DNA of 64,000 bases from a virus: positions 1 through 64,000 of the IMG/VR virus record IMGVR_UViG_3300020411_000483, one strand, 5' to 3'. Under the pieces are notes generated by a model. That model was not told where the DNA came from and searched no databases. It saw only the letters and a program-made list of their open reading frames with translations. Positions within the stretch are counted from its first letter, which is position 1; each line of letters opens with the position of its first letter. Made by a program: the position numbers and the translations under genes. Positions 4,850 to 63,455 of this stretch are shown in pieces.

Positions 4850-5452
4850 TTATTTCTTAGCCGCTTCAGGAGTCCAGTATTGGACTTGTAGCTCAACAGT
4901 GAATTCTTCCACTGCGTCGTTACTTCCGAAGTCTAAGTCTATTGCAGCAACGTTACTTGGGAATACGTTGTAGAATTTATAACCTTTAAGAATCTTAGGA
5001 GCCTCAGTCTTATTACCTGTTGCTACAGTTGCACCTGTGTCTCTGGCAAGTTGCCAAACACTCATGTCTGCAAAGTAACCAGTTGAATCACTGTCGTCAC
5101 CTAATGTGCCAGCAGCAGTAAAGTTTTCATTACTTGCTTGAATTGCGTCAACCCATAACTCGAATGCATTCCTTAAGACGAAACCAGAATCATTCATGAT
5201 TGTGATTGTCCATGGCTCGAATGTACGGTCTCCAGCAATCTTTAATACTCTTCCTCGGAAGGGTACTTCAATTACTCCGATTTGTGATGCGGGTAAATTA
5301 GCAGCTCTAACTGTAAACTTTCCAAGGTTTGAAAGTGCTGCGTCGTTTATTATACCTGTTGGGAAGTTTAAATCCACCTGAAACAGGTTAGGGCGAGCGA
5401 AGTCGGATACAACACTTGCCTTAAAGTCATCAATAGTGCCTCTAATTGCCAT
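4850..5452 (-). CDS. gp19: tail tube protein gp19
   Basis: ARPNLFQV, VPFRGRVLKIAGDRTFEPWTITIMND, EEFTVELQVQYW. Confidence 0.96.
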   Translation of the reverse strand: MAIRGTIDDFKASVVSDFARPNLFQVDLNFPTGIINDAALSNLGKFTVRAANLPASQIGVIEVPFRGRVLKIAGDRTFEPWTITIMNDSGFVLRNAFELWVDAIQASNENFTAAGTLGDDSDSTGYFADMSVWQLARDTGATVATGNKTEAPKILKGYKFYNVFPSNVAAIDLDFGSNDAVEEFTVELQVQYWTPEAAKK

Positions 5453-5477
5453 TGTTTTTTATAGCTCCGTTTGCAAC

Positions 5478-5484
5478 TATTTAG
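5478..5484 (-). promoter_or_regulatory. late promoter variant CTAAATA upstream of gp19
   Basis: Lies between the gp18 terminator and the gp19 start. Confidence 0.55.
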
Positions 5485-5504
5485 ACTTTCCGCTTTTTTG
5501 ACAC

Positions 5505-5531
5505 AAAAAAAGAGACCCCGTAGGGTCTCTT
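5505..5531 (-). terminator. rho-independent terminator after gp18
   Basis: Minus strand AAGAGACCC-TACG-GGGTCTCTT followed by a T-run; cUACGg tetraloop. Confidence 0.9.
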
Positions 5532-5548
5532 GATTGTTTTTATTTAAT

Positions 5549-7807: not shown

Positions 7808-7848
7808 TAGTAAAACTCCGTTTGATTAGTGCATCGTTTGTCTAAGAA

Positions 7849-7856
7849 TATTTATA
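7849..7856 (-). promoter_or_regulatory. late promoter TATAAATA upstream of gp18
   Basis: Exact consensus in the gp17-gp18 gap. Confidence 0.8.
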
Positions 7857-7867
7857 ATTTTGAAACG

Positions 7868-9541
7868 TCACCTATACTCCCACATGTAAGAACTATCCCC
7901 GTACTCTCCTACAGATGCGGAATTCTCAGCAACCTTCCACACATCTCCCTGAGCATCTTTAAAAACTTCTTCCTCAAATCCGTCGCTCACAAAACCGAAT
8001 GGAGCCATGTCTTGCTCAATTGCTTCTCTCTGATCTCTATAGATTCTTGCTCTAACATCAGTATCATTAAGCTCTTTAAAGTATTGCTGCATAGCAAGCC
8101 AAGCAAAAATAACCATACACATAGCAAGGTCATCGTTACATCCTTCTTCCGCTTGGAATGATTGTCCCTTTTGAATGAATGTAGTTAACTCTGCAATACA
8201 TTCATAATCTGGAATCAATAATTTATTATCTTCTACTAATACTTTTAAGTTGGAACAACCAACTTGCTTAACAGCAGTAGACATCTTGACTCCCATCTGT
8301 GTCTTCTTACCTGAGAATCCTTGTCCTACCTGTTGTCCTGCTCTACCCCGCATTGCACACATGAGTAGATTATCATACTCTAAATCATACTGAATAATAT
8401 CCGCTACCTGACCACCAACATCATTTACTTCTACTAATATAAATGCACCATTATAATTTCTAGCAACATCTACCAGTATGTTAGGGAATAGAATAGGTTT
8501 AACATCATTATTTCTATATCTAGCAACTATCTTATAGGGGATTGTTGTTGTATCAACCACCAGAAATGCAGAATAATCACCAGATACGCCCCTTGCAACG
8601 TCAGCAGTGATAACGTAGTTATGCTTTTCCTCGACATTTTCATAAATTGCTAGACCTTTGTTTTCATTAAGTGGATCCTCATATGTCATAGTCCTCAATG
8701 CAGTAGGACTAATAAGAGTGTCAACTGATCCTAAGAATTCACACTCAAACTCAACTTTGAATTGCTGCTCTGAAGTGTTTGCAATGGTTTGCTCTTTCCA
8801 TCTAGCATCTCTACCAGGTACTTGAGACCAATGAACCTCAGTTGGTACATATTCATTCTTCTTTCTTTCAGCATCATGCCAAAGTTTATAAAACATATTC
8901 ATACCGTGTGGGGTAGAAATGATTATAACTTTAGTTTTCTTACCAGAAGATATAGTAGGATAAACTGAACTAAAGAATTGGTCAGCAATATGATTCGGTA
9001 CGAATGCAAATTCGTCTAAGAATATAACGTTGAATGACATACCACGAACTGCTGATGCAGAAGTGGATGCTGCCATAATCTTACTACCATTCTCTAATTC
9101 CAGACTACCTTTATTCCATTCGTTAATACCCTGTTGCAACCAACGTGGTAAATTTTCATAAGATAATTGGAGACGACCAAGCATTTCCCTAGCCGTTGCA
9201 GCTTTGTTTGCAAGAATTGCTACGTTTACATTCTGATTAAACAGGACATACCATAAAAGATATGCTGTAACAATTGTTGACTTCCCAGACTGTCTAGGTA
9301 ACTTTGCTATATTGAATCTTTCAGTATGAAACTTCTGCACCATTTCCTCTTGGAAATCGTACATATCAAAAGAGACTAAACCTTCATCCAGAGATACAAT
9401 CTTTAAGTACTGTCTGATAAAGTATATTGGATCATCAGCACATTTAAGATATTCCTGAATCTGATCAGGTGTAAAGTCCTCAGAAACGTTTGCCTTTTTA
9501 AGGTTCGGGTTACCTAAGTATATGTCTTGGGCTTTAGCCAT
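7868..9541 (-). CDS. gp17: terminase large subunit gp17
   Basis: YLGNPNLKKAN, Walker A PRQSGKS, Walker B IFLDEFAF, nuclease motifs DVARG / NDDL. Confidence 0.97.
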   Translation of the reverse strand: MAKAQDIYLGNPNLKKANVSEDFTPDQIQEYLKCADDPIYFIRQYLKIVSLDEGLVSFDMYDFQEEMVQKFHTERFNIAKLPRQSGKSTIVTAYLLWYVLFNQNVNVAILANKAATAREMLGRLQLSYENLPRWLQQGINEWNKGSLELENGSKIMAASTSASAVRGMSFNVIFLDEFAFVPNHIADQFFSSVYPTISSGKKTKVIIISTPHGMNMFYKLWHDAERKKNEYVPTEVHWSQVPGRDARWKEQTIANTSEQQFKVEFECEFLGSVDTLISPTALRTMTYEDPLNENKGLAIYENVEEKHNYVITADVARGVSGDYSAFLVVDTTTIPYKIVARYRNNDVKPILFPNILVDVARNYNGAFILVEVNDVGGQVADIIQYDLEYDNLLMCAMRGRAGQQVGQGFSGKKTQMGVKMSTAVKQVGCSNLKVLVEDNKLLIPDYECIAELTTFIQKGQSFQAEEGCNDDLAMCMVIFAWLAMQQYFKELNDTDVRARIYRDQREAIEQDMAPFGFVSDGFEEEVFKDAQGDVWKVAENSASVGEYGDSSYMWEYR

Positions 9542-9725
9542 TCGCTTCTTTTATTGCCTCAACTATAATCTTTTTCAATTGTCTGCTTTTCTTTCTACCT
9601 AGACCAGCAGATGTATCTATCTTTACCTTAACCCAGTAAAGACCAATTAATACAAGGACAAATGGAATAGCATCTCCCCATGAGATTTCATTCCATGCCT
9701 CTACAACATTCAATACTCCAAACAT
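9534..9725 (-). CDS. small membrane protein (hypothetical)
   Basis: One hydrophobic segment (AIPFVLVLIGLYWV) followed by a basic tail; overlaps the gp17 start. Confidence 0.7.
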   Translation of the reverse strand: MFGVLNVVEAWNEISWGDAIPFVLVLIGLYWVKVKIDTSAGLGRKKSRQLKKIIVEAIKEANG

Positions 9726-9727
9726 AA

Positions 9728-10192
9728 TTAACCCTCATTAAGTGTCCCAAAGGATCTACGAATCTCTCGTAAATCCTCGAAGTTTTTTTGCTTAGTTCCA
9801 CCATCGTAAGGCCAAGCATAACCTTCATCAATCATTTGCTCATTGAGTGAGATTGATTCCTCCCCAACGTAAAGCCAACCCAGAAGCCGACCGTACTTGC
9901 CGACACCACCATGAAGCTCAGTGCGAATAGTGAGCTCATCATCGCCAGCCAGAGTGCTTTCCAATTTTTCTTTGAGCCAGTTTGTTGCATCTATTCCCAG
10001 TTCCTTTTCTTCCAAGTCTCTTGTTCTTTTCTCTGGCGTATCAACTCCTGCAATTCTAACTCTTTCTTTCTTGTATAGATCAAACCCGAGATCAATAGTA
10101 ACGTCAATAGTGTCACCATCAAGTACCTTGTTTATCTCCGTCACCCTGAAGTTGTAACAGCTCTTCCTGCTCGGTGGAGTCATCGCACCCAT
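9728..10192 (-). CDS. staphylococcal nuclease (SNase/thermonuclease)-like endonuclease
   Basis: VLDGDTI, RVRIAGVDTPE, GKYGRLLG, LNEQMIDEGYA motifs. Confidence 0.85.
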   Translation of the reverse strand: MGAMTPPSRKSCYNFRVTEINKVLDGDTIDVTIDLGFDLYKKERVRIAGVDTPEKRTRDLEEKELGIDATNWLKEKLESTLAGDDELTIRTELHGGVGKYGRLLGWLYVGEESISLNEQMIDEGYAWPYDGGTKQKNFEDLREIRRSFGTLNEG

Positions 10193-10337
10193 GTTCTTCC
10201 ATCTCCAATTCTAGTATTGAAGTATTTATAGATTCCTCAACAGGGGTTCTATTCTGCTCCGAGTGCCAATCCCTCATCCTCTGAATCCACTCTCCTGGTG
10301 TGGGAGTCATCAATATGGGGGTTAGGATACCAATCAT
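10119..10337 (-). CDS. hypothetical protein (heavily overlapping, uncertain)
   Basis: 72-aa ORF overlapping both neighbours in different frames. Confidence 0.35.
   Translation of the reverse strand: MIGILTPILMTPTPGEWIQRMRDWHSEQNRTPVEESINTSILELEMEEHGCDDSTEQEELLQLQGDGDKQGT
10223..10230 (-). promoter_or_regulatory. late promoter TATAAATA upstream of nuclease/gp17
   Basis: Exact consensus 30 nt upstream of the nuclease ATG. Confidence 0.7.
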
Positions 10338-10425
10338 CGTATTTAAAGATCCAAAATATAGTGTAGCCGACTGCTACTAACAGTATAGCACACATTATAT
10401 TTATTGACCAGACTACTTCACTCAA
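10249..10425 (-). CDS. small single-TM protein downstream of petE (not in ORF track)
   Basis: TTG start overlapping the petE end; MSEVVWSINIMCAILLVAVGYTIFWIFKYDDWYPNP..., 58 aa. Confidence 0.7.
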   Translation of the reverse strand: MSEVVWSINIMCAILLVAVGYTIFWIFKYDDWYPNPHIDDSHTRRVDSEDEGLALGAE

Positions 10426-10780
10426 CGTGAATCACCCCCTTCATTCCAGCACCAGCATGTGGATCACATTGAAACTCAAAATCTCCTGCTTCTGTAAAAG
10501 TAACTGGAAATTGCTCTCCACTCATAAATGCTAAGTCGGGATGAGATAACTCATCATGTCCTGCAAATACTACATTGTGAGGAGGTAACTCACCATTCAC
10601 AAATGTAACTGTATCTCCAACACTAACTGTTAATTCATTTGGTTCAAAAATTAAATTTCCCCCAGAACCCATTTGTATAGTATCAGCAGCATATGCTTTT
10701 GCTGCCAACGTCATTGATAATGCTAAAGATGTTAGCATGATAGTGATTCTACTCATCCACCACATTATTTGGTGTTTCAT
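10418..10780 (-). CDS. petE: plastocyanin
   Basis: Signal peptide ending AYA; L.FEP.ELTV..GDTVTF, PHNVVF, C-DP-H-AGAG-M type-1 Cu ligands. Confidence 0.95.
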   Translation of the reverse strand: MKHQIMWWMSRITIMLTSLALSMTLAAKAYAADTIQMGSGGNLIFEPNELTVSVGDTVTFVNGELPPHNVVFAGHDELSHPDLAFMSGEQFPVTFTEAGDFEFQCDPHAGAGMKGVIHVE

Positions 10781-10783
10781 AAT

Positions 10784-10945
10784 TTATTCCTCCTTTAGGA
10801 TGTAATCAAAAAAATGAGGATGCTCCCTTAGATATGGGACATCCTCTTTGCTGTGTTGCATTGCTTCGTATGCATCTTGGGCATACTCGCAGATTTCTAA
10901 ATGTTGTTGGTCGAGGGTATGATACCCTACAGTGTAATGAGACAC
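10784..10945 (-). CDS. small His/Tyr-rich protein upstream of petE (not in ORF track)
   Basis: GTG start; MSHYTVGYHTLDQQHLEICEYAQDAYEAMQHSKEDVPYLREHPHFFDYILKEE (53 aa); its 3' end supplies the AGGAGG RBS of petE. Confidence 0.8.
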   Translation of the reverse strand: MSHYTVGYHTLDQQHLEICEYAQDAYEAMQHSKEDVPYLREHPHFFDYILKEE

Positions 10946-10978
10946 GATTTATAGCCGTGGGCTCGCTTAATACACTTT

Positions 10979-10986
10979 TATTTATA
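10979..10986 (-). promoter_or_regulatory. late promoter TATAAATA upstream of the petE cassette
   Basis: Exact consensus; a second TATAAATC at 10946-10953. Confidence 0.75.
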
Positions 10987-10993
10987 AGTAATA

Positions 10994-11128
10994 TTACTCA
11001 ATGTCGTTTCGGTTTGAAGACGCTGTTCGTATCTCCTTACATTTCTTTTTGAAGTCTACCTGATCAAGTAGTCTCTGAGTTGCAGCCAGTCTTTCTGCCT
11101 TTTCTTTTGGACTTTCCTTCCGTTCCAT
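10994..11128 (-). CDS. small hypothetical protein (not in ORF track)
   Basis: ATG...MERKESPKEKAERLAATQRLLDQVDFKKKCKEIRTASSNRNDIE (44 aa); fills the gap before the late promoter. Confidence 0.5.
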   Translation of the reverse strand: MERKESPKEKAERLAATQRLLDQVDFKKKCKEIRTASSNRNDIE

Positions 11129-11318
11129 AGTTTTCGATGAATTGCTTGTAAGTCAACGGTGGCTTGACCATTTCCTTTTGGGCTAACTTATTAGCCGTAG
11201 CATACATCACTTCCTTGTCACGTTTACCATAAAGTCTTTTAAAGTCAGAGGAACGACGTTTCATTCCTTTGACTATTTTTTCAGCTTTCTGATTTACAAG
11301 AGGCATATCAACCTCCAA
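11064..11318 (-). CDS. basic hypothetical protein, possible internal head protein
   Basis: KAEKIVKGMK...YGKRDKEVMYATANK motif and LTYKQFIE; true start may be the ATG of MPLV. Confidence 0.7.
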   Translation of the reverse strand: MEVDMPLVNQKAEKIVKGMKRRSSDFKRLYGKRDKEVMYATANKLAQKEMVKPPLTYKQFIENYGTEGKSKRKGRKTGCNSETT

Positions 11319-11844
11319 CTACTTGTACCTCTTCAACTATAATTGCTTGACCACCAGCAGTTATTTTAACTGCTCTCTGTACTATTGCTTGGTTACCAGA
11401 GTAAGCATAGGTGTAGTCAGCACTAGCTGATGAAGAGTCAATATCTGTACTTATTGTAGTATCTGTTGCTGCTGTTACCTTTTTACCAGCAGTTACTGCT
11501 GATAAGAAATTACTGTCAATAGCAGGAGAAGTGCTGTCATCCACCACAGCGATATAATCTCCTGTTGAAAAAGGATGTGTTGCAGACCTTTCTCCAAGAT
11601 TAGTTCCTAACTGATAATCTGCTGTTGAATCATCAACTGCTTTTTGTATCCTTGCTTGTCCAGGCTTAGCATTACCCTTTAAAAGTACTGGGGAGTTTGC
11701 AAAAACTTGGATTACTGGTCCTGCTCCAAATTGTACTGTAGATGCTGCTGTAGCACTTACACGATAGAAACCAGTTTGTACCACTTGATACTCAGATTGA
11801 GATGCACTTATAGAATTTGTGCTTAATACGTTAAGGACTGTCAT
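11308..11844 (-). CDS. hypothetical beta-rich virion-type protein
   Basis: 178-aa Ser/Thr/Ala-rich ORF; GATAAATA late-promoter variant at 11869-11876. Confidence 0.8.
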   Translation of the reverse strand: MTVLNVLSTNSISASQSEYQVVQTGFYRVSATAASTVQFGAGPVIQVFANSPVLLKGNAKPGQARIQKAVDDSTADYQLGTNLGERSATHPFSTGDYIAVVDDSTSPAIDSNFLSAVTAGKKVTAATDTTISTDIDSSSASADYTYAYSGNQAIVQRAVKITAGGQAIIVEEVQVVGG

Positions 11845-11851
11845 GTCGGGT

Positions 11852-12277
11852 CTATGTAGATTCGATATTATTTATCTCTTTTTGCTTCTTCAACATCTTT
11901 TGTAGGTCAGCAGTGCTTCCTACAAACATAGTATTATTAATTGTTGATGGTCCTTTCTTATCTTCTTTATCCAATTCTTTCATCTTACCTTGCAAGTCAA
12001 TCAACTTGTCTGTCGTATCTGCCACGTGTTTGATGAGTTGACCAGCAACTTCATAAGCACGAGGATGATCAGACGCTCGTGCCACATCAAGTATGCCATC
12101 TACTGCCTCCTGTCCTTTCATTACTAAGTTATGTAGATTAGCACGACTCATTTCATAGTCTTGCTTAATGTCTTGCGTCTCACTCTTCTTGAGTGATGGC
12201 TTGACTGCTTCTACATGCTTCTGTAATTCAGAAGGTTCTGCTCCAAATACTTTGTCTAGTCCATCGAAAGTTGCCAT
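11852..12277 (-). CDS. gp16: terminase small subunit gp16
   Basis: DYE.SRANL, HPRAYEVAGQLIK, NNTMFVGSTADLQKMLK. Confidence 0.93.
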   Translation of the reverse strand: MATFDGLDKVFGAEPSELQKHVEAVKPSLKKSETQDIKQDYEMSRANLHNLVMKGQEAVDGILDVARASDHPRAYEVAGQLIKHVADTTDKLIDLQGKMKELDKEDKKGPSTINNTMFVGSTADLQKMLKKQKEINNIEST

Positions 12278-12279
12278 AA

Positions 12280-13311
12280 TTAAATTGCCTCATCTGCACC
12301 ACTTAAAGGATTACGTTTCTTCATGTCAGTGAAGTCAGAATACAATTCGCCGAATCCGAAATCGTCATCAGCTTCGATGGTTGCATGATCTGCCTCATCG
12401 ATTTCAAGTATTCCTGATCCAGCAACGTGACCTGCAATAGTACTACCATTCCATCCACGTTTAACATGTAAGGTGCTACCGACAATCCTATCGATACGCA
12501 TTACCTCAGTGTCAATTTGAATGTTGGTATTCTCTGCAAGACTGGATACATCTCCGACTGTAATAATACCGTCGTTGATATCCATAGCATTGGTAAGTGT
12601 AGTAACTGCTGCACCAGTAACGTTGGTCAAAGCAACTGGAGTTGCCTGATAACGTACTTGTCTTGGTGCTGCTGTAGTGCTTGTAGAAGTATAGTAATCT
12701 GTGATAGCCTTCTTGATAACTTTGCTGTCTGTAACAGGACCGTATAGGTAAGTCTTTGCTGTAAACTGTAGAGTCCAAATGATTGCTCTACGTTGAGTAA
12801 ATTCTCCTTCGTAATCATCCTCATAGTCTACACTGTTTAGTGTTACTGGAACATCCTTAACTTCATTTACAGTAGTCAAGAGTTTGATAGAAAGATTATA
12901 ATGTGGTTGGAAGTATGGTAGTATCTGCTCTATAATCTGCAAACCATCTTCCTGATTCTTTGCAATGATTGCCAATTCAAATCCTACATTGTAGGGTACT
13001 GGCATAAATGCATTCTTATTCTTGGTTGTCGTACTAGCAATTTTAATCTTTTGAGTAGGTGATACCTTCCTTGATGAATCATAGGTAATCCCATTCATTT
13101 CAAATGAGATTCTAGGAAGAGTAATCTGCACTCTTTTATTGGTAGGGTCAGGCATCTGATCCAACCTTGCCAAGAATTTCTGCTTAGGACCATATGCCAA
13201 AGGCACTTTCATGACCTCGTTTGCTCTCCTCAATTCGATGTTATTAAACATCGTACCAAAGGCAACGACAGTCTTCCTAAAAATTTCGTGATAACTATAT
13301 GTGCCTAACAT
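12280..13311 (-). CDS. gp15: tail sheath stabiliser/terminator gp15 with an extra C-terminal beta domain
   Basis: VPLAYGPKQKFLARL, LPRISFEM, QIIEQILPYFQP, F.AKTYLYGP. Confidence 0.95.
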   Translation of the reverse strand: MLGTYSYHEIFRKTVVAFGTMFNNIELRRANEVMKVPLAYGPKQKFLARLDQMPDPTNKRVQITLPRISFEMNGITYDSSRKVSPTQKIKIASTTTKNKNAFMPVPYNVGFELAIIAKNQEDGLQIIEQILPYFQPHYNLSIKLLTTVNEVKDVPVTLNSVDYEDDYEGEFTQRRAIIWTLQFTAKTYLYGPVTDSKVIKKAITDYYTSTSTTAAPRQVRYQATPVALTNVTGAAVTTLTNAMDINDGIITVGDVSSLAENTNIQIDTEVMRIDRIVGSTLHVKRGWNGSTIAGHVAGSGILEIDEADHATIEADDDFGFGELYSDFTDMKKRNPLSGADEAI

Positions 13312-39200: not shown

Positions 39201-42200
39201 AGGACCAACAACATTAACTACAGCAGTTGCACCGCTAGTGCCAGTTAAGTCATCTACAGATGCCCAATTTGTACCTGTAACATCACCAATAACCAACATC
39301 TGAGTCTCAGTGATATATTCCTTAACAGATGCATAACCACCACCAGATGAAGTTACAACTTCACCCTCAGAGAATTCTCCAATTACATTGGTAAGAGTGA
39401 TGTTTCTAGCATTACCAAACTTAGATGTATCAGTAATTGCTAAGTCATGAATTACATCATTAACTGTAGTCTCTAGGAATGTATTGATATCTGCTGACCA
39501 TGCACCAGAACCCCACTGACTGTTAACTAGATTTTCTAATTCTTGGTCGTAGTAATTCTTGTTATTAAGAATCATTCTACCAGCAGACCTACCAGCATCA
39601 TCTGAAGGAGATAGAGTATCAATTGCGATATCCATCAAGTTCTCAAATGCGTTAACTGCATCAATACAATCATCACTTAAGTATGCAGTATCACCCTTAC
39701 TATCGGTAATAGTTGCATCACGGTATGCAACTTCTGTAGTCCACATAGCAGCATACTGGTCACCAGTTAATCCAGTTATACCTTGGTTATAAAGGTTATT
39801 GATTATTGCTAGTTTACCAAGTTTCTTAACTTGCTGGAAGGCATACATGGTTGAGAGTAATTGATCCTCAACTTGTTTGATACCACCAGAAGTAGCAATA
39901 TAATTTTCAATTGCTCTAATAGTATTACTGTTACCACCAGTTTGTAGGTCACTGATGACACTATCAAGCAATAGTTTAATATCTTTCTTACATGTATCTC
40001 TACCAGTAGCACCACCTGGATACTGGAAGGATTGATAAAGGATGTTGTTTAGAGTATATGAGAATTCAGCATCTAGTAAACCAACTGCCTCTTCAGCAAT
40101 GTAATCCTTATTGAAGTGTAGAAGGTCACCTGCATCTCTATATCTGTCACCATTAGGAGCAAGAGTCTCATTTGCCAATAGGACTAAAGTATCAAGTGCA
40201 TCCTTAACGTTTGTGCAATCGCCAGGGGCAGTTACAGAGTTAGCAACAGCAGATACAAATGTATGAGCATAGTTACCACCTGTGACTATAGCATTAGCAG
40301 AAGCAGAAACAAATAGGTGTGCAGTTGTGTTAGTAGATGTACCAACGTTAACTGTGATTGTATTATCATCAACAGCAGTAATTGCTACAGCATCGTTGTA
40401 TGCAGGGTCATCTGCGGATGCTCCACCTTGTCCATTAGCACGAGGATATTGGTGATTAGATCCATGACTGTCCTGAGCACAAGTGAATGTTAATGATTGT
40501 TGTGCAATCTGAATTGCTGTGCCAACTGCTAAGTTATGAGCACCGATTGTTAATACCAATACACCTGTAGTAGGATCGTATGTTGCAGCAGTAGGAGTAA
40601 AGTATTTGGTAGGTGATGCACCAATGTTAACTGTAATAGTTGTTGCAGTAACTGCCTTAATTAAAATATTCTTGTTATACCAAGGGTCAGATGCTCTTGG
40701 ATAATCCTTAGCAGAACTGTTACCATCCATTGCACAAGTGAATTTCAATCCACCAGCAGCAATGTTAATCTTTCTACCAACTGTCAAACTGTGTGTTCCA
40801 ATGGTTAATACCATGTCACCAGTTACAGGATCGTATGTTGCAGCAGTAGGACTAAAGTTAGTAGCAGTATCTTGGGTAATACCCCAATCACCAATGATAA
40901 CAGAATCAGTATTAGCGTCAGTTAAATCACCTGTTACTGATTGCTTGGCATAGAATCCAAGTCTGTTATGAGCATATAGAGATTGAAGTAGTTGGAGTCT
41001 AACGTGTTGAATCTCATCGTTAGTTCCAAGGTAATTCTTAACTGCAATTAGAGTATTGAAGTTACCACCATCTTCGATGTCATTTGCAATAGCATCTAAG
41101 ATAATTCCTAAGTCAGTCTTACAACGTAGAGTACCAGCACCACTACCATCAGCATTTCTAGGCATTCCTAGAGTCAACTCAGGATAACGAGCAATCATAT
41201 CAGCAGCAGTCTTATCTACGATAGGACCACGATTGAGTCTGATTAGATTTGCAGCATCACGGAATCTGTCTCTAGTTGCTAGGTCAACTCTTTGTGTATA
41301 AGCAAGACCAGTAGCAACGTCATCGATGTTAAATGGTATTTCTAAGAATGCATCAGCAGTTGCACCAACATACTCATGTTGTGGAGTTAGTTTTGTAATA
41401 GTTGCTAGATGGTCTACAGCAACTGCCTGATTTGCTTCAATCAATGTATCAATAACAACTGATAATAGGTTATCAACAGTAGATTGTACGTCTGAGCAAT
41501 CACCGTTACTGTATCCAAGGACCTTAACGCAATCAGCGACTGCCTTAACCCACTTATGAGTATGCAACCATTTCTTAATAGCACCACCCTTAGCACTTAC
41601 AAATAAGTGTGAAGAGTTTGGAGTGTAAGAAACAGCGTTAGAAGCAGCAGTTACAAATGTATGAGCATAGTCACCACCTGCGTGGATTACTGCTCTCTTA
41701 ATTCCATTTGCAGTAGCAGAAACGAATGTATGTGCAGAAACGTTTGTGGAAGGTAGAGAATCTAATACTTGTACTTGGAATGTGTTTGTAGTAACTCCAG
41801 AAATAGTTAACCACTTACCAGATACAGGATCACTTGGTCTTGGATATGTGTGGTTAGTAGCATTACTATCCTTAGCACAACTGAAAGTTAAAGAGTTATC
41901 TGCAATCTTAATTCTTTCTCCATTAACGAAACCATGACCATTAACAGTCAATGTCAATAGACCTGTAGTTGGACTATAAGTTGCACCAGTTGCAGTATAG
42001 TTACTATTTGCACTTACAAATGTATGTGCAGTTGTGTTAGAAGAAGTTCCAACGTTTAGAGTAATTGTTGTTGCTGTTACAGCAGTAATTGTTACAGCAT
42101 CGTTGTATGCTGGATCGTCAGCAGATGCACCACCTTGACCGTTTGCACGAGGATAAGTGTGGTTGGATCCATGACTATCTTGAGCACATGTAAAGGTTAG

Positions 42201-45200
42201 AGAATTATTTGCAATTCTAACCTTATGATTTGTAGTGAGGTCATGCTCACCGATTGTTACTGTTAGAAGTCCAGTAGCAGGTACGAATGATGCAGCAGAT
42301 ACATCGTAACCGATAGCAGGAGACTTACCAACATTAACTGTAATTACACCTGACTGCTTTCTAATACCGTTTGTAGCAGCAGAGACGAATGAATGAGTTG
42401 TAGTATCAGATGATATACCAACATTAACTTGGAAAGTATCTGTAGCAACGTTAGAAATCTTTAACCACTTACCGTAATATGGGTCTGTCTTTCTAGGATA
42501 TGCATGGTCTGTCTGATTTCCATCAAGAGCACATCTCATTACTAGAGACCCTTCAACGATTTGAATGTAATCGTTATTGGAGTATCCATGAGAAGGAACT
42601 GTAATTACCATTACACCTGTAGAAGGTGTATAAGCAACGTTAGTAGCAGTAGTAGAAACATATCCTACTTCATCAACACGAATAGACTTGCTTTGACCAT
42701 ATGGGTCTGTAGCACGAGGATAAGTCTTATTAGAAGACCCTCCGTCCATTGTGCAGTTGAATGTTAATGAATCATTAGCAAGGACAATGTTAGATCCAAC
42801 CTGAATGCCATGCTGACCAATAGTCAGTGTCATGTCACCAGTTACAGCATTGTAAGTAGCAGCAGATGGAGTAAACTGTGCGTTTGTACCAGCAGCACCA
42901 ACATTAACTGTAATCTGACCATTCTGCCTCTTCATTCCGTTATTTAAAGCAGAAGCAAAGTTATGAGCAGTAGTATTAGTTGAAGTACCAACTTGAATAT
43001 CAAATTGAGTTGTAGTTACATTAGTAATCTTTAACCACTTACCGAATGTTGGGTCAGTAGTCCTTGGATATGCATGGTTAGTAGCATTACTGTCTTGTGC
43101 ACAAGTAAAGGTTACAGCACCAGCATCAAACTTAACTCTATCACCAGCAGAGAATCCATGAGCATCTAGGGTAATTGTCATTACACCTGTAGTTGGATTA
43201 TATGCTGCAAAACTTGGAGTATGACTTGTTGAACCAATAGCAGTTACAGCCTTCAACTTACCTGAAGTCCTAGTATCATGTCCAGGACGAGGATATGTCT
43301 TCTGAGACTGGTTATTGTCCATTGCACAAGTGAATGTCAATGAATTATCATCAATCTCAACGAAGTCATCTGTAGTAATATCATGTGTACCAATGGTTAA
43401 TACCATATCACCAGTTGCAGGATCATAAGTTGCAGCAGATGGAGTATATGGAATATAATCATCAGGTTGAGTTGACTTACCTACATTAACTGTAAATGTG
43501 TTGGTAGTTGCTTTAACAATTGGTAATACCTTATTGTAGAAAGGATCAGATGTCCTTGGATATGTGTGCTCTGAACCAAACTCATCTAAAGCACATTCAA
43601 ATGTAAGTGATTCTTTATCGATAGTGATAGAAGAACCTTCCTTATGGAATGCATTAGTCTTACCAGATACAAATGTATGAGCATGGTCTCCACCAGACAT
43701 TATGACTGCTCTGCTAACACATCCAGAAATTGCAGAAACGAATGTATGAGTTGAAGTATTAGAAGAAGCACTCACATTTACATTAAATGTATTTGTAGTT
43801 ACACCAGAAATCTTCAACCACTTACCAGAAGCAGGGTCTCTAGTTTGAATACCATTTGCACTAGCAGAAACAAATGTATGAGTTGAGGTATTAGAAGATG
43901 GAGTGATGTCTAATACTTGGACATCGAATGATGTAGATGCTACGTTAGAAACTTTTAACCACCTAGCACTTACAGGGTCAGAAGCACGAGGATAGGTTTT
44001 ATTAACTGTATTGCCATCCATTGCACATGTAAATGTCAATGAATCATTAGCAATCTTAATCTCATCACCATTTGCTAGGTTATGAGCAGCAGTTGTAGTA
44101 ATGCTTAAGATACCTGTTGTTGGGTTATAAGCAGTACCAGTTGTTGCTGTAAATTGAGCACCAGCAGCACGAGGATAGGTATGGTTTGTTGCGTTGCTAT
44201 CCTGAGCACAGGTAAAGGTTAATCCATTATCAGCAATCTTAACCCACTCACCATTCTGGAATCCATGACCATTAATGGTTAGTGTTAAAACACCTGTTGC
44301 AGGGGTGTAAGACGCTGTAGATGGTGTATATGTGTTATTTGCATTCTTGAATGTATGAGCATAAACTCCACCTGCCTTAACTGCACCAGCAGTAGCAGAT
44401 ACGAATGCGTGAGTTGTAGTATTAGAAGAAATACCAACGTTAACTGAGATAACACCAGTTTGCTTCTTAATTCCGTTAGAAGTTGCAGAAACGAATGTGT
44501 GAGCAGAAGTGTTAGTAGATGGTCCTGTGTTAACATCAAATGTGTTAGTTGTTACTCCAGTAACAGGCACCCATTGTGATGCAAGAGGATCAGTTACACG
44601 AGGATATGTGTGGTTAGTAGCATTACTATCCTTAGCACATGTAAATGTTAATGAATCTGCATCAAACTTAACCATATCTCTTGCTCTGAGCAATCCATTA
44701 GATGCCCAAGAGATGAAGGTATGTGCAGAAAGGTCTTGTGACTTATGAACGTCAACTGTAAATGAATTAGTATCAATCTTAGTAATTGGTAACCACTTAC
44801 CAGATACAGGATCAGATGAGCGAGGATATGTATGGAATGTAGCATCACTATCCTTAGCACAAGTCATAGTCAATGAATTGTCTACGATTTGTATTCTGTC
44901 ACCGTTAGAGAATCCATGACTTGATAAAGTAATGGTTAATATACCAGTAGCAGGAGCATAAGATGCAGCAGTTGGAGTATGTTGTGTAGCTCCAGTCAAT
45001 CCATGACTGTTGCTGGTAATTGTTAACTTACCAGTAGTAGGTGTATATGCAGCAGTAGATGCAGTTAGGTTTGTAGTACCAACTCCAGTAACCTCTATTG
45101 CAGTATCATATGCTCTATCTTTCTTCTGCTTAACTCCATTAGAAACAGCAGATACAAATGTATGAGCAGAAGTGTTAGTAGAAGGTGCAGAATCTAATAC

Positions 45201-48200
45201 CTGAATATCAAAGCCATTTGTAGATACGTTAGAAACTTGAATCCACTTATTAGCAATTGGGTCAGTTGACCTTGGATATGTGTGGTTAGTTTGGTTAGAG
45301 TCAGCAGCACAAGTGAATGTTAAGCAATTAGCATCTAACTTAACCCAATCACCATCCAACATGCCATGACCACCAACAGTAAGACTTAAAATACCTGTTG
45401 TAGGGTTATATGTAGCATTGGTTGGTGTATGATTTAAAATATCTGTTCTTGGATAGGTATGGTTTGTAGCATTACTATCCTGTGCACAAGTAAATGTTAG
45501 AGAGTTATCTGCAAACTTGATGCTATCACCAACTAATAGGTTATGAGATCCAATAGTGATGTCCAAAGCACCTGAAGCAGGTGTAAATGAAGCAGCAGAA
45601 ACGTCATGCTGAATTATTGGAGACTTACCAACATCTAATTGTATAGTATTATCTTTCTTAACTACGCTGTTATGATCCCATCTTAGATAAGTATGTGCAG
45701 AAATATCAGGAGACTTACCAACGTTAATTGTAAATGTATTAGTAGTTACAGCAGAAATTGTTATCCAACTATTAGCAACTGGGTCTGTTGCTCTAGGATA
45801 TGAATGATCAGACTGGTTATTATCCTTAGCACAACTGAAAGTTACAGCACCATCAGAAAGTTTAACTTGGTCATTAACTGCAAATCCATGTCCTATTAAG
45901 GTAACAATCATTTCACCTGTTGTAGGTGTATAAACTGCATTAGTAGGAGTATATGGAGTACCTTCATACTTGATAGGAATTGCTTCTTCATATACTGGGT
46001 CAGTTGACCTTGGATAAGACTTAATTGCATTATTGTCATCCATCGCACAAGTAAAGTTGAGCGAATTATTTGCCAACTTAATTGTTTGACCAGCAGCGAA
46101 GTTATGATCACCAATGGTTAATGACATCAAACCAGTTGCAGCATCGTAAGTAGAAGCAGTTGGTTTGTAAGCAACTAAAGGTTTCTTACCAACGAATATT
46201 TCAAAAGTATTTGTTGATACTACACCAACTTCAATCCATTTCTCTGATGCAGGATCCTCTGGTCTAGGATATGCGTGCTCGGACTTATTACCGTCCATAT
46301 CACAAGTCATTGTGACTGCACCATCTTCCATCTTGACCTTATCGCCAGGATTTAAACCATGACCGTTAGAAGTAACGACCATAATACCTGTGTTGGCATC
46401 ATAAGTTGCACCTGTTGCTGTGATAGCAGCACCAGCAGTCAAACCATGAGCTGCCTTGGTTAGAGTCAATTCTCCAGTTGAGGTATCATAAGATCCTGTG
46501 GTAGGAGTAATTGTTGATGGAGAAGCGTTAGTAGAATCAGTAATAGTTGTATCAGTGACCTGAGTTAATCCATGATCACCTAATATTTGAATATGTTGGT
46601 TAGTAATAATTTGCTGTGCTAACCTAGATAACTCTTCATGTACCCAGATTGTCTCTTCTACTTCAGTTTCAATGTGGTTAACAGTGATAGGAGATACATT
46701 TCTATTAACATAAAGTGCAGCAGCATCCCAAAGATAACTGTTACCACCGTTTCTTACATCTTTTATTAGAGCATCGATGATATCTTGTACGTCATCAGTG
46801 CAATTTACAGTGCCAGTAAGGACATTGAATGGTGAATAAGGTGACTGATGCTCCAATCTCCATACAACTTCCTTAGCAAGGAATTCCTTATTACTATTAA
46901 GTAAATCAGCAGCATTAAGATATCTGTGAGTATTCAGACTATGAGCAGATAGGTTACCACCTGTCTTTCTCTTAGTAGCAAGAATAGCATCATTATTAAA
47001 GTAATCTCCATCTACCCAAGTTCCAGTACCAGACCAATCATCAACATAAGTTGCTGCGTCAGGACCATCAAAGTGATATAGTAATTTTGTATTACTATCT
47101 CCTTGGAAAATACCAGTTGGAAGAGTATAAGCACCTGTATATCTTGCAGTTGTTGAAACTCTTACTTCATCAATATGACCATTAAATCCTGTAGCACCTG
47201 CATAGTCAGCACCGATATAAACTGGTTTAGAAGCACCGTAGTTGTTATTATCAGTATAGGTACTACCAACCTGTGCTCCATTTACAAATATCTTAGTTGA
47301 AGTGCCAGTCTTAGTAACAGCAACATGATACCATGTGTTTATTGCAAGAGTGCCACCATTAGCAGCAGCTGTATTTCCTACAGCAACTTTAAGTGCAGTG
47401 CCATCAGTATAAAGTCTAAGAGCAGTATCTGTAGCAGATGCACTTCTAGTATCAATAATTGTATGCTCTCCAGTTACATTAGCAGGACGAATCCATGCTT
47501 CAAGAGTAAGAGCACCAGTGCCGAATCCAAATTCTTGGTTTGCAGCAACAAGTAAGTAGTCACCAGTACCATCAAGTAATAGAGATGCAGTGCCCCACTT
47601 CTTCTGAGCAGTGTCTAATTGTGCTCCACCATTGAATGTAACAGTATGGAAGTCAGAACCAGAAGCAGTTGACCTACCCATCTTACCTAGGTAAACAGTG
47701 CTTCTTGCTTGGTTATAACCAATAACTTCTGCCTTAGAATTCCTAGACCTAATTACATTACCTTGGTTAAAGAATCCAGCACCTTGCTTATCAGTAAAGG
47801 TTAGTTTTCTTACAAAACCTTCTTCATTTTCTAGGAAAGTACCAGAGTTATTTCCATAATCAATTTTATAATTTCTAATAAACTCATTTTCTTGGAATGT
47901 TCCAGTAATATTTGTTGTCTTAATAACGTAGTTGTTAATCAACTCGTTAGCAGGGAATTTAGAATCAAATGCTGTTAGATTATCAGTAAAGTCAACAATA
48001 GAAATCTGAGACTGTGAAATATCATCCAATACAACGTTTGGATAAGTCTGAGATGCAATTCTGTTGAATAGTAGACCGAAGAATGAGGATCCTTCAGATA
48101 TATTGACCTGACTAATAAATTCGTTAGTTACAGGGTCTTGATAAGGACTTGTAGATGCAATTGTTGCAACAACACCAGACTTAGCAGCAATGATAACATC

Positions 48201-59801: not shown

Positions 59802-61862
59802 TTAGAAACAAGATTGTGTTGTAGTGCTGCCAACGTTGGTAACAGTAATAGGATCGAGTGTAGTTGGTGTGCTCGAAGTCTCAAAAATGGTTGGCGTAAG
59901 ACTATTTAGTGGGATACTGGTAGGTGGAGTAGTACCAATCGCACCAATGTCAATCGTTGGGTTTATTACACCGATAATAGTATCTGGACTTGGAGTAGGT
60001 ATTTGAGATGCGTTTGCAGGAATAATCTGTACAGGAATGTTTAAATCTCCTAATGCAGCAAGGTTTGCAGCAGAAGAATCTACTGTGCCACCTTCAAATA
60101 CACCGTCTGCATCAGTATCAACTGCTGTACCTGCTAATACTCCCAAATTATTACCTGCTGCACCTGTTACATTTGCAGGACCAAAACAGATATCACCAGT
60201 TGTATAGTTAACTGTACCAGCAGAAGAATTAGTAATAACTTTTCTATTACCACTGTTGTAATAAGTTCTTAAGTTTCCAAACCCATCATCCTCGAAATAC
60301 TGGTCTACAGTAGGACGATCAGCGAGTCTAAACCTACCAGAAACGATTACAGGCTCTTTGACACAACCATCTGCATTAGAAGTCTTACCTGGAGCACTAT
60401 CGTAGATAGGAGCACCAGTTGATATACAGTATGTGTTTGTTTCTGCTGGTTTTGGATTAATATATTTTAGTAGTGAGACTTGAGTCGAAACATCAGAAAT
60501 ACACTTATCTGCAAGTGTTATTGCCTTCTGGAATTTCGCAAGACTGAATGAAGAATTGAAGTTGTTAACTTTAGAAGCAACTGCCCACTCATTAATAGCA
60601 TTTTGAGCATTTGATTCGATAGCAGAGACGCTTCTAGCAGAGCAAGCAGGGTCATAAGTGATAAACACTTTAGGATAGACGTAAATGCTCTCAGCATCGG
60701 TTACAACGGGTTCAATCGATGCCATAGCGTATGCTCTCAACTGTTTAGAGAGGTTTATCTTTGTTGCATCGTTTAATTTAGATCCTGTCTTAGTTTTGAC
60801 TGCGATGTAGACTTTTCCATATACAGGAGGATATAATTCATCTCCACCATAAGCGACAACGCTTGCCACGTTATCATATATCTTTTGCATGATAACTTCG
60901 TAATCCTTTGAAGTAACTGCACGATATTGGGCAGAATAGTATCTTGGAGCATTATATTTGATGGATTCAACGCTTTCTTCATCAGAACCTCCGTAGGATG
61001 TATTCTTAACTATTACGTCTACATCAGATGCAGAATAGTTAACACCATTACTATCAGAGATTAAACCGATAAATGCAAAGCTTGTTACATCATTTGCACC
61101 TTTTCCAGCAGTTACAAGGTATTCAAGGTCAATAACCTCACCATCAGTTAATTTTCTACCAATTACATCATCACCAAAAGTCAATTCATATCTCATATCC
61201 TCTGTTTCGGATAAGAAATAAACCCTGTCAGTTGCTGTTACATTAGTAACATTTTCTACTTTATTATAAACGTCTGAGCTAGTGCTACTTTCGTTTGCTC
61301 TAACACTAACTTTTAGAGTGGCAATATCTGCATCAGATGTTGGTACCACATAATTCTGTTTAGCAAATGTGTTAACAAGATACGAGAAGTTGATAACGCT
61401 ACCTTCTTGTATCAATACACATTTTAATGTTGCAATTCCTGTTGTTTGATCAACCTCAGCAGTGAATGGCTCTAGTCTATTCCAAGTGTAATTACCACCA
61501 GTAGCAACGGATCCCTTCGCTAAAGTGACTGAAGCAGGCCAAGCACCAGCAGTTTGATTAGTTTGTATCGCTAATTCCAAATACGCCTTAGAAGCAGTAA
61601 CAGAATTAGGTGTATAGTTTAAAAGCTTCGCAATATTGACAATATTATCTCTTACAGTAGATGATGCTATAAATGCCTCATTCATTGACATATTTGCCAT
61701 GAATGCACTATAATAAGTGTTATAAGCAAGAGTATCAATTAAATACGACAGACCTGACCCTTCAAAGTCATAATCTGAAAATTCACTACGAGTTCGCAGA
61801 TATGCCTTGATAGAAGACTTAATATCTGTAAAATCTAATGCTGTTAAATTATTCGGTTGCAT
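59802..61862 (-). CDS. gp6: baseplate wedge subunit gp6
   Basis: LDF..IK..IK.YL, DYDFEGS.L..LID.LAYNTYY, FGD.V.G, ES.ESIKYNAP..Y.AQ.RAVT..DY. Confidence 0.96.
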   Translation of the reverse strand: MQPNNLTALDFTDIKSSIKAYLRTRSEFSDYDFEGSGLSYLIDTLAYNTYYSAFMANMSMNEAFIASSTVRDNIVNIAKLLNYTPNSVTASKAYLELAIQTNQTAGAWPASVTLAKGSVATGGNYTWNRLEPFTAEVDQTTGIATLKCVLIQEGSVINFSYLVNTFAKQNYVVPTSDADIATLKVSVRANESSTSSDVYNKVENVTNVTATDRVYFLSETEDMRYELTFGDDVIGRKLTDGEVIDLEYLVTAGKGANDVTSFAFIGLISDSNGVNYSASDVDVIVKNTSYGGSDEESVESIKYNAPRYYSAQYRAVTSKDYEVIMQKIYDNVASVVAYGGDELYPPVYGKVYIAVKTKTGSKLNDATKINLSKQLRAYAMASIEPVVTDAESIYVYPKVFITYDPACSARSVSAIESNAQNAINEWAVASKVNNFNSSFSLAKFQKAITLADKCISDVSTQVSLLKYINPKPAETNTYCISTGAPIYDSAPGKTSNADGCVKEPVIVSGRFRLADRPTVDQYFEDDGFGNLRTYYNSGNRKVITNSSAGTVNYTTGDICFGPANVTGAAGNNLGVLAGTAVDTDADGVFEGGTVDSSAANLAALGDLNIPVQIIPANASQIPTPSPDTIIGVINPTIDIGAIGTTPPTSIPLNSLTPTIFETSSTPTTLDPITVTNVGSTTTQSCF

Positions 61863-62583: not shown

Positions 62584-62778
62584 TTATTTATCAGAGAAAC
62601 GGACACCTTTGCATCCCTCTTTAGAACAGTAGTATCTTCCTTCACCTTGATTAGGTGTCAAATAGTCAACACCTTCTGCCCATTCATCCATTGCTTCTCT
62701 CACAATAGACTTTATTTCATTACGAATATACTCTTTCTGCTTTTCTCTACGCTCTTTAATCTTTTTGAAGTTAAACAT
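62584..62778 (-). CDS. hypothetical protein
   Basis: 64-aa ORF coupled to the ho1 stop (TAATG); C-x4-C near the C-terminus. Confidence 0.65.
   Translation of the reverse strand: MFNFKKIKERREKQKEYIRNEIKSIVREAMDEWAEGVDYLTPNQGEGRYYCSKEGCKGVRFSDK
62585..62592 (-). promoter_or_regulatory. late promoter variant GATAAATA upstream of SET-gp25-gp6
   Basis: Overlaps the end of the 64-aa ORF, 22 nt upstream of the SET start. Confidence 0.5.
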
Positions 62779-63455
62779 TAGTTTCCCCGTAAAAAACCTA
62801 ATAACACTTTCCAGAATCCTTTAGTAGCAGATCCTTGAATTTCATCAAATAGGTACATATTTAACCTAAATGCATAATTTGCCTCTGTAATTAGTGCATT
62901 TGTTTGAGATTCATCTAAACCAAGATTATCTAAAACGTTCCTATAGTTATTCTTAAACTCTTTAGCATCAGGTATCTTACTAAAATCGTAAAACCATAAT
63001 CCTTCACCTTTAGGTGGATTAAGTGCTTTTTGAGCAATATTGCATAAAATCTGTCCTCCAGACAAATCACCGATATATCTCGTGTAATGATGTCCTATTA
63101 ATAGGTAAGGTTCATCATTAGCAACTTGATTAATTCTATAACAATATGTGTTACATGCCTCAGTAGGTATCTGTAATGCTCTCCAATTAGGACCATAGAA
63201 GTATCTAAGGTCTCTTTCTAAGTTATTAACACGCTCTAACTCACCTTGGAATCCACTTATTATTTTCACCCAAGGATCCTCGGATTTCCTAATTTGCTCC
63301 TCCATCGTCTGATAGACGTAATAGAAATTAGTCAATAATTGACGATATTGCTCAGGGTCTAACACCCCTTTAAGGAATCCAGAAACAAATTTAGTGTTTT
63401 CTGCTGCTGAATGGGACTTTTTAGTCCCTTCCTTCAATGCTAGTGCTAATCCCAT
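62778..63455 (-). CDS. ho1: heme oxygenase (biliverdin-forming)
   Basis: LKEGTKKSH..AEN..F (proximal His), HHYTRYIGDLSGGQIL, EANYAFRLN. Confidence 0.96.
   Translation of the reverse strand: MGLALALKEGTKKSHSAAENTKFVSGFLKGVLDPEQYRQLLTNFYYVYQTMEEQIRKSEDPWVKIISGFQGELERVNNLERDLRYFYGPNWRALQIPTEACNTYCYRINQVANDEPYLLIGHHYTRYIGDLSGGQILCNIAQKALNPPKGEGLWFYDFSKIPDAKEFKNNYRNVLDNLGLDESQTNALITEANYAFRLNMYLFDEIQGSATKGFWKVLLGFLRGN

Follow-up and report, generated by a model that had tools for sequence, protein, structure and literature searches.

Phycobiliprotein-like domains with conserved bilin-attachment residues in baseplate and tail fiber proteins of cyanomyoviruses

The 64,000-nucleotide stretch considered here (the window; positions 1 to 64,000 of IMG/VR virus record IMGVR_UViG_3300020411_000483) belongs to a 74-kb virus record whose completeness is 42%. 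It contains a T4-like cyanophage structural module with all genes on the minus strand, and within this module lies the gene for a giant gp7-like baseplate wedge protein of 7858 amino acids (aa). An earlier reading of the DNA by a model, made from the sequence alone (the original prediction), had proposed that three helical repeats in this protein resemble phycobiliprotein β subunits, retain both bilin-binding cysteines, and might place covalently bound bilins on the virion, for sensing light, for photoprotection, or for mimicry of the host. Sequence profiles and structure models indicate that the three domains are very probably diverged homologues of phycobiliproteins. Phycobiliprotein-derived domains with conserved attachment residues are thus located in baseplate and fiber proteins of cyanomyoviruses. 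The features discussed below are collected in Table 1.

Table 1. Parts of the giant gp7-like gene, followed by other genes of the window (Cys1, Cys84-type cysteine; Cys2, β-153-type cysteine; R1, repeat 1; ORF, open reading frame).
Feature	Position	Strand	Basis or remark
Giant gp7-like baseplate wedge protein, 7858 aa	36219..59795	-	ORF; Pfam, PHROG, orthologue annotation
Repeat 1, N-terminal part (helices A–G of globin core); Cys1 C4332 (codon 46800-46802), C-T-D-D	46509..46925	-	Family profile E 5e-28, profile positions 1-145
G–H loop insert of repeat 1, ~1650 aa; 15 or more diverged β modules	41544..46508	-	Motif count; missing from uninterrupted R1 orthologues; phrog_1276, phrog_2885
Repeat 1, C-terminal part; Cys2 C6100 (G-D-C-S, codon 41496-41498), helix H	41421..41543	-	Aligns with the TGDCTDV...DTLTQAN end of uninterrupted R1 orthologues
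Repeat 2, N-terminal part; Cys1 C6225 (codon 41121-41123), R-C-K-T-D, terminal G-I-T-Q-D	40899..41267	-	Profile E 4.9e-22
Insert of 208 aa in G–H loop of repeat 2; two small β-barrel modules	40239..40862	-	Absent from 55/60 orthologues; all-β in model
Repeat 2, C-terminal part; Cys2 C6527 (P-G-D-C-T, codon 40215-40217), helix H	40149..40238	-	Cys2 invariant in orthologues; model helix
Repeat 3, uninterrupted 184-aa domain; Cys1 C6602 (C-K-K-D, codon 39990-39992), Cys2 C6710 (D-D-C-I, codon 39666-39668)	39597..40148	-	AlphaFold2 model, Foldseek, VIA
Putative fourth-copy remnant lacking Cys; first helix alone	39516..39596	-	Profile positions 4-29, pairwise E 0.016
gp6-like baseplate wedge subunit	59802..61862	-	phrog_219 E 4.5e-222; directly upstream of giant gene
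Heme oxygenase gene ho1	62778..63455	-	PF01126 E 3.8e-69
Further giant structural ORF, 2408 aa	22016-29242	-	phrog_358 of unknown function; without phycobiliprotein-like domain
Further giant structural ORF, 2152 aa	15051-21509	-	phrog_697 structural protein, tail-fiber-like parts; without phycobiliprotein-like domain

The six codons that the original prediction named as cysteines all encode cysteines of the 7858-aa frame, and the repeats are real paralogues, the N-terminal parts of repeats 1 and 2 (R1 and R2) being 31–34% identical to repeat 3 (R3). A profile of R3 orthologues detects R1 at E 6e-15 and R2 at E 2e-16, places the repeats at 46925–46587, 41267–40908, and 40145–39603, in agreement with the proposed boundaries, and finds no further copy in the other open reading frames of the window. 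Each repeat begins with helix A directly after helix H of the preceding repeat. The spacing C-x-x-D-x14-GG is exact in all three and is that of Cys84 in the phycocyanin α subunit CpcA; likewise, the CpcB alignment of the original prediction is borne out by the actual CpcB sequences of Acaryochloris, GITQ..GDC[ST]N among them. The C-terminal part of R1, taken alone, gives a weak profile match. As to the proposed fourth, degenerate copy without cysteines near 39595, a first helix of 26 residues does match the profile, but only weakly, and the rest is unmatched; some orthologous proteins, for example that of S-CREM1, have 4–5 copies.

Repeats 1 and 2 are both interrupted in the loop between helices G and H, and orthologues prove that the intervening stretches are inserts, as had been supposed. 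Among 60 distinct R2 orthologues, taken from other cyanophage contigs, 55 are uninterrupted domains of 172–178 aa reading GITND-PGxCANV, whereas in the window 208 residues separate GITQD from PGDC. Uninterrupted R1 orthologues read ...HGLTQT..TLTDS....AYTTGDCTDV..., whereas in the window ~1650 residues separate TITDS from SNGDC, and the piece after the insert aligns closely with the last helix of the orthologues. Lineage-specific β-barrel arrays have thus been inserted into the G–H loop of R1 and R2, leaving two or three residues between array and second cysteine. The inserts share the module motif L-T-F-T-C-A-x-D-x5-H-x-Y-P-R (at least 15 times in R1, twice in R2), whose conserved Cys and His could bind metal. 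In an AlphaFold model the R2 insert (residues 143–354) is all-β and forms two small barrels, with weak structural matches (Z 7–8) to the small barrels found in E1 enzymes, in a phage FCWL1 protein, and in the phi92 endosialidase. No Pfam family matched the β modules, and Tandem Repeats Finder detected no DNA-level tandem repeats in the inserts.

The case for homology rests on both structure and sequence. The template-free AlphaFold2 model of R3 has a predicted local distance difference test score (pLDDT) of 86.4 and a predicted template modeling score (pTM) of 0.85. In a Foldseek search of the PDB, the top 50 matches of this model are all phycobiliproteins, with template modeling scores, normalized by query, of 0.50–0.66. 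The aligner VIA, which works independently of Foldseek, ranks eight phycobiliprotein/ApcE chains first among 48,161 representative solved chains; the best match is 5aqd_M (phycoerythrin β; Z 15.8, root mean square deviation 2.3 Å over 148 residues), and heme globin sensors come behind at Z ~11. The template-free model of R2 with its insert (pLDDT 84) has helices at residues 3–34, 51–73, 77–84, and 96–119, and a helix at 359–376 that packs back on the globin core and completes it after the insert. This model matches phycoerythrin β in VIA with Z 16.7 (155 aa, 2.6 Å, model residues 1..377 spanning the insert), and phycobiliproteins again rank first. Both models have the phycobiliprotein-type globin fold (helices A, B, E, F', F, G, and H) on which the original prediction depended.

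Profile searches lead to the same proteins. A profile of 59 R3 orthologues, run against 177,635 distinct PDB sequences, gave 25 matches at E up to 1, among them 24 α chains of phycocyanin or phycoerythrin (best E 0.024), in which the conserved cysteine falls on Cys84. With a profile built from 1340 phage copies, CpcA of Acaryochloris obtains 29.3 bits (E 9.4e-6 in the same 177,635-sequence space; the reference phycocyanin sequences are those of Acaryochloris plasmid pREB3), and profile–profile alignment by hhalign yields 96% probability (P 2e-9). The uninterrupted type of R2 and CpcB can be aligned over 141 columns that take in both cysteines (P 5.7e-5), Cys2 falling on Cys153 of CpcB. Each repeat has a globin-type core (helices A–H), a Cys84-type cysteine on helix E, and a β-153-type cysteine before helix H. 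The N-terminal X/Y helices are missing, as had been predicted: the structural alignments begin at residue 27–33 of the phycoerythrin β subunit. A Pfam hmmscan at E 10 of the repeats and 59 orthologues returned noise only (GCIP_C, PutA_1st, and Spore_YunB), and the ESM Atlas gave no usable match.

Compared with phycobiliprotein subunits, then, the phage domains have in common the globin core A–H, for which CpeB/CpcB are nearest by fold and by the second site, CpcA by sequence around Cys84, and the bilin-binding domain of ApcE is also a relative. They share G-I-T-x-G-D-C-[ST]-N before helix H with the β subunits, and a long G–H loop with phycoerythrin β. Unlike phycobiliproteins, they have no X/Y helices and so could form neither the canonical αβ monomer nor the (αβ)3 disc, and, whereas phycobiliprotein subunits are free proteins of 17–20 kDa, the phage domains are embedded in giant virion proteins, 3 to ~29 per chain. 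They further differ in scoring below the Pfam threshold, in replacing an arginine in the protein studied here (see below), in carrying β-barrel arrays of up to ~1650 aa in the G–H loop, and in that their pigment is only predicted. The bilin biosynthesis-associated globins (BBAGs) of heterotrophic bacteria are likewise relatives of phycobiliproteins outside the phycobilisome and are tied by gene neighborhood to bilin synthesis, but they are small, free-standing cellular proteins; the comparison made here follows their published description (PMC10151467). The same survey of phycobiliprotein origins, by Rockwell, Martin, and Lagarias (2023), mentions phages only for the bilin reductases PcyA/PcyX (PMC10151467). 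A “bacterial fluorescent protein” (8u0f) is among the Foldseek matches.

In the 1340 phage copies, which are otherwise ~25–30% identical, the Cys84-type motif keeps its Cys in 96%, the Arg at +2 in 92%, and the Asp at +3 in 98%. The consensus around the cysteine, K-C-x-R-D-[VI]-G-[YL]-I...Y-x-L-x-x-G-G-N, matches helix E of CpcA, and phycobiliproteins have K-C-x-R-D-[IV]-G-Y...Y-x-L-x-x-G-G at identical spacing. In phycobiliproteins, the Arg at +2 contacts the bilin propionate. Among gp7 orthologues, the signature of the site is specific to the position of the repeat. R1 orthologues read C-E-D-D, with Cys1 in 31 of 32, Asp at +2 in 28 of 32, and Cys2 in 7 of 8 aligned; R2 orthologues read R-C-K-T-D, with Cys1 in all 60, Arg at +2 in none, and Cys2 in all 55 aligned, with both cysteines invariant in a set of 48; R3 orthologues read C-x-R-D, with Cys1 in 63 of 66, Arg at +2 in 45 of 66, and Cys2 in 26 of 66, where it accompanies a long G–H loop. 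The claim that all repeats keep both cysteines therefore stands for this protein and for R2 orthologues but is not general. The attachment Cys and Asp are thus under strong constraint, and the second cysteine is essential only at some positions. A disulfide between Cys1 and Cys2 was considered and rejected, since Cys2 is missing from the majority of family copies, which keep Cys1 alone, and the Cys84-type and β-153-type sites lie far apart in the phycobiliprotein fold.

Among phage genomes, the domain was found only in cyanophages. Searches of 50,697 phage genomes by tblastn returned 364 records with R3 as the query and 349 with four tandem copies from the fiber protein of S-WAM2, all of them cyanophages. 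Matches of a whole metagenomic fiber protein to Vibrio, Ralstonia, and Pelagibacter phages disappeared with a query of the domain only and so stem from the remaining regions of that protein. Among 1.8 billion representative sequences, a search gave 516 relatives, and nearly all of those listed are giant proteins with up to 29 domain stretches (phmmer). Short representatives, which might have been free-standing forms of the domain, were read as fragments of gp7-like proteins and rejected as such. Metagenomic fiber proteins of 2500–6400 aa consist almost wholly of the domain, with 13 to 26 copies by our own profile and up to 29 stretches by phmmer. In one of these proteins, the array comes after a tail-fiber N terminus and a β-helix-like region; an IMG/VR search for loci related to it gave none. 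In 185,579 species genomes, one narrow peptide pattern was found only in two contigs of metagenome-assembled genomes, NZVD01000020.1 and CAYVOK010000024.1 (labeled Rhodopirellula and Acidimicrobiaceae). One of the two equals an IMG/VR viral contig both in length (22,908 bp) and in identity to R3 (59%), and both are probably cyanophage DNA mis-binned into bacterial genomes. Absence of the domain from cellular genomes is weakly supported by this one pattern.

In the giant protein, the Pfam family Baseplate_wedge (PF23786) matches at aa 676–726 with 33.9 bits (cut-off 27); the protein also matches the PHROG virion structural protein families phrog_701/18802, and its orthologues in isolated cyanophages are annotated as gp7, baseplate wedge initiator, or virion structural protein. 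The gp6-like gene lies upstream and the wedge proteins phrog_677/708/438 downstream, so that gene order and the wedge domain identify it as a T4-type gp7. As in T4, the gene sits between gp6-like and wedge genes and has the wedge domain near the N terminus; T4 gp7 has ~1000 aa, however, and the extra mass of the giant protein includes YHYH, laminin-G-like, β-barrel repeat, and phycobiliprotein-like modules. Aa 1331–1525, ~2319–2403, and 4075–4218 belong to further domains, one of them YHYH (PF14240, E 4.6e-31) and two of the laminin-G/concanavalin type (PF13385/Laminin_G_3, E 6.9e-29), the second of which lies just upstream of R1. A megablast search with 3 kb against the phage collection gave no match. 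The gene belongs to a same-strand chain that runs from ho1 through frames of 64, 94, and 138 aa and gp6 to giant gp7, with stop and start codons that abut or overlap at 62778, 62278, and 61862. At the head of this chain, ho1 looks like an auxiliary metabolic gene within a baseplate operon. Possession of ho1 is not general, as only one of five other genomes has it; the annotated ho1 of P-SSM2 also adjoins tail fiber-like genes, but that of P-HM1 does not.

A link to bilin attachment comes from cpeT, which encodes a T-type lyase. Such lyases act on the β-153/155 cysteine of phycobiliprotein β subunits (PMC10452541). Among 19 cyanophage records, cpeT and the domain occur together in 12, namely six near-complete or complete (98–100%) IMG/VR genomes, S-WAM2, P-HM1, S-PM2, S-RIM44, S-CAM1, and S-CREM1. 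Two records (B23 and ACG-2014f) have the domain only, five (P-SSM2, S-PRM1, P-SSP7, S-CBS2, and a MedDCM podovirus) have neither, and none has cpeT only. Fisher's exact test, done by hand and treating records that are not independent, gives p ~0.002 over all records and 0.05 within Kyanoviridae. In four genera (S-PM2, S-RIM44, S-CAM1, and S-WAM2), cpeT precedes a domain-bearing fiber gene on the same strand by 0.7–3 kb, and these fiber genes are giant genes annotated as “short tail fiber” or “tail protein.” In S-PM2 (NC_006820.1 160834–173127), a gene for a 2OG-Fe(II) oxygenase stands between cpeT and the fiber gene. In the same segment, the RefSeq record places fifteen tRNA features inside one long frame (3792 aa, four domain copies; locus 5095–12294), and either the tRNA coordinates or the coding sequence look misplaced. 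P-HM1 has both cpeT and the domain, and its CpeT belongs to the lyase type that serves the site kept here as Cys2; the link of that enzyme to a virion protein is drawn by inference. Gasper et al. (2017, J Biol Chem 292:3089) reportedly found that the complex of P-HM1 CpeT with phycoerythrobilin gave no pigment transfer to a host β subunit, which left the substrate open.

Since the 1970s it has been known that cyanophage adsorption can depend on light. Liu et al. (2019) observed that P-HM1 and P-HM2 fail to adsorb in the dark, that adsorption of S-PM2 is light-dependent but independent of host photosynthesis, and that P-SSM2 and P-SSP7 adsorb in the dark; they proposed light-sensitive receptors or tail fibers (PMC6628666). 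We find six domain copies in P-HM1 and nine in S-PM2, and an unfiltered six-frame profile search of the whole genomes of P-SSM2 and P-SSP7, with positive controls, gave no copy. Presence of the domain thus matches light-dependent adsorption in four of four phages for which both kinds of data were found, including one T4-like phage without the domain; the match is suggestive, but the sample is small.

These observations can be joined in one mechanism. While virions assemble in the cytoplasm of the cyanobacterium, the domains would bind a linear tetrapyrrole, the bilin being supplied by the host or, in the phage of the window, perhaps partly by its own heme oxygenase. Covalent attachment at Cys1 might be autocatalytic or use host lyases of the S/U or E/F type, and, where Cys2 is present, the phage T-type lyase CpeT could attach bilin there. 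Baseplate and fibers would then carry bilins, and light absorbed by them might alter the conformation of these structures and so gate adsorption. Such gating would explain why cyanomyovirus adsorption can depend on light yet be independent of host photosynthesis. We infer covalent bilin on the virion from circumstantial support, that is, from the restriction of the domain to cyanophages, its co-occurrence and synteny with cpeT, the match with adsorption, and the place of ho1 in the gene chain. We put the probability that at least part of the family's copies bind bilin at roughly 0.5. A light-sensing role in adsorption is more doubtful. The same tentative standing applies to the wider proposal that cyanomyovirus particles carry their own photoreceptors and that CpeT and part of the bilin-synthesis genes (for example, ho1) serve to pigment the virion and not the host antenna.

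A number of results weigh against this proposal. The family profile against which the original prediction would have the repeats compared, PF00502, scores no copy even at E 10: no match was obtained in the three repeats, aa 6085–6800, and 59 orthologues, nor in a six-frame search of the whole 74-kb record, and, with a gathering score of 22.2 bits for that family, the domains are not members of it in the strict sense. At the site itself, the Arg at +2, so widely kept in the family, is replaced by Asp, Thr, and Lys in the three copies of this protein, as had been predicted (the Asp at +3 is kept in all three), and is never or rarely present in R1 and R2 orthologues. This loss in all three copies weakens the case for bilin here. 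The second cysteine is Ile, Val, Ala, or Met in 40 of the 66 R3 orthologues. Neither cpeT nor a bilin reductase was found in the 74-kb record, a 42% complete fragment, and cpeT was not detected in the domain-bearing phages B23 and ACG-2014f. Conversely, P-SSM2 is annotated with ho1 and has no domain copy; it also carries pebS and pcyA, so that phage bilin genes are not explained by the domain alone. The 19 records behind the cpeT association and the four phages behind the adsorption match are both small and phylogenetically non-independent samples. Finally, most phycobiliproteins harvest light and are not photoswitches, and we know of no report of colored or fluorescent cyanophage particles.

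Some of these points would be expected if the domain were an exapted structural module, that is, a captured host phycobiliprotein gene used as a rigid helical spacer or scaffold, free of pigment, in which C-x-R-D..GG was kept for folding or contacts between domains. Tandem copies, up to 26–29 per fiber protein, resemble building blocks and would fit a purely architectural role; big β-barrel arrays are tolerated in the G–H loop beside Cys2; the X/Y helices have been lost; and the loss of Arg in R1 and R2 of all gp7 orthologues, the hydrophobic residues at Cys2 in many R3 copies, and the two phages with the domain but without cpeT fall into place as well. On the other hand, a lone cysteine on a helix is rarely kept in 96% of 1340 copies of such low identity, together with the Arg and Asp that hold a bilin, and a neutral spacer leaves unexplained the restriction to cyanophages, the lack of any phage with cpeT but no domain, and the synteny of cpeT with fiber genes in four genera. 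We regard this as a serious competitor, although one that falls short of even odds.

The same conservation and the same link to cpeT would be seen if bilin were bound for a purpose other than sensing, for instance to stabilize the fold or fiber, to quench reactive oxygen, to screen light, or as a sink for the bilin of the infected cell. Most phycobiliproteins are not photochromic, which would suit such a role. Stabilization of phycobiliprotein folds by covalent bilin is known (PMC2327270) and would suit it too. Because this possibility accounts neither for the match between domain and adsorption in four phages nor for placement specifically in the host-recognition apparatus, we consider it improbable. 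A different ligand, be it heme or some other tetrapyrrole, as sensor globins have, or a molecule of the host surface, with the likeness to phycobiliproteins being only ancestral, seems more improbable still. Heme globin-coupled sensors, photocobilins, and non-heme RsbR-type globins do come next in the VIA ranking (Z 10–12), and the presence of ho1 in the gene chain is a further hint of heme chemistry; yet phycobiliproteins stand clearly above heme globins in both structure searches, conservation falls on the bilin site and not on a proximal His, and sequence profiles match only phycobiliproteins. Least credible of all is a chance or convergent helical bundle without homology. Helical bundles often score middling in structure comparison, and PF00502 is silent, but five independent measures bring the same residues into the same register, and K-C-x-R-D-[IV]-G-Y and G-I-T-x-G-D-C both stand at the right places in the fold.

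Our literature searches found no description of phycobiliprotein-like domains in phage proteins, and we know of no virus particle that carries a photoreceptor. Pigment on the virus particle and light sensing are both testable now. Should no pigment be bound, the domains would still clearly exemplify the exaptation of a host antenna protein for building virions. For protein evolution, they represent a phycobiliprotein branch that lacks the X/Y helices and tolerates insertions of more than 1600 residues beside the chromophore site, and the domain could be a source of new fluorescent tags. For the phages, bilin-bearing domains bear on a long-standing puzzle, the presence of cpeT and bilin-synthesis genes in cyanophages, above all in those infecting Prochlorococcus, a host without phycobilisomes. 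A T-type (β-153-like) site on a virion substrate offers a testable answer. The domains are also a concrete candidate for the basis of light-dependent adsorption, located in the very structures that have been implicated. If this proves true, they would provide a viral mechanism for the diel rhythms of infection in the ocean.

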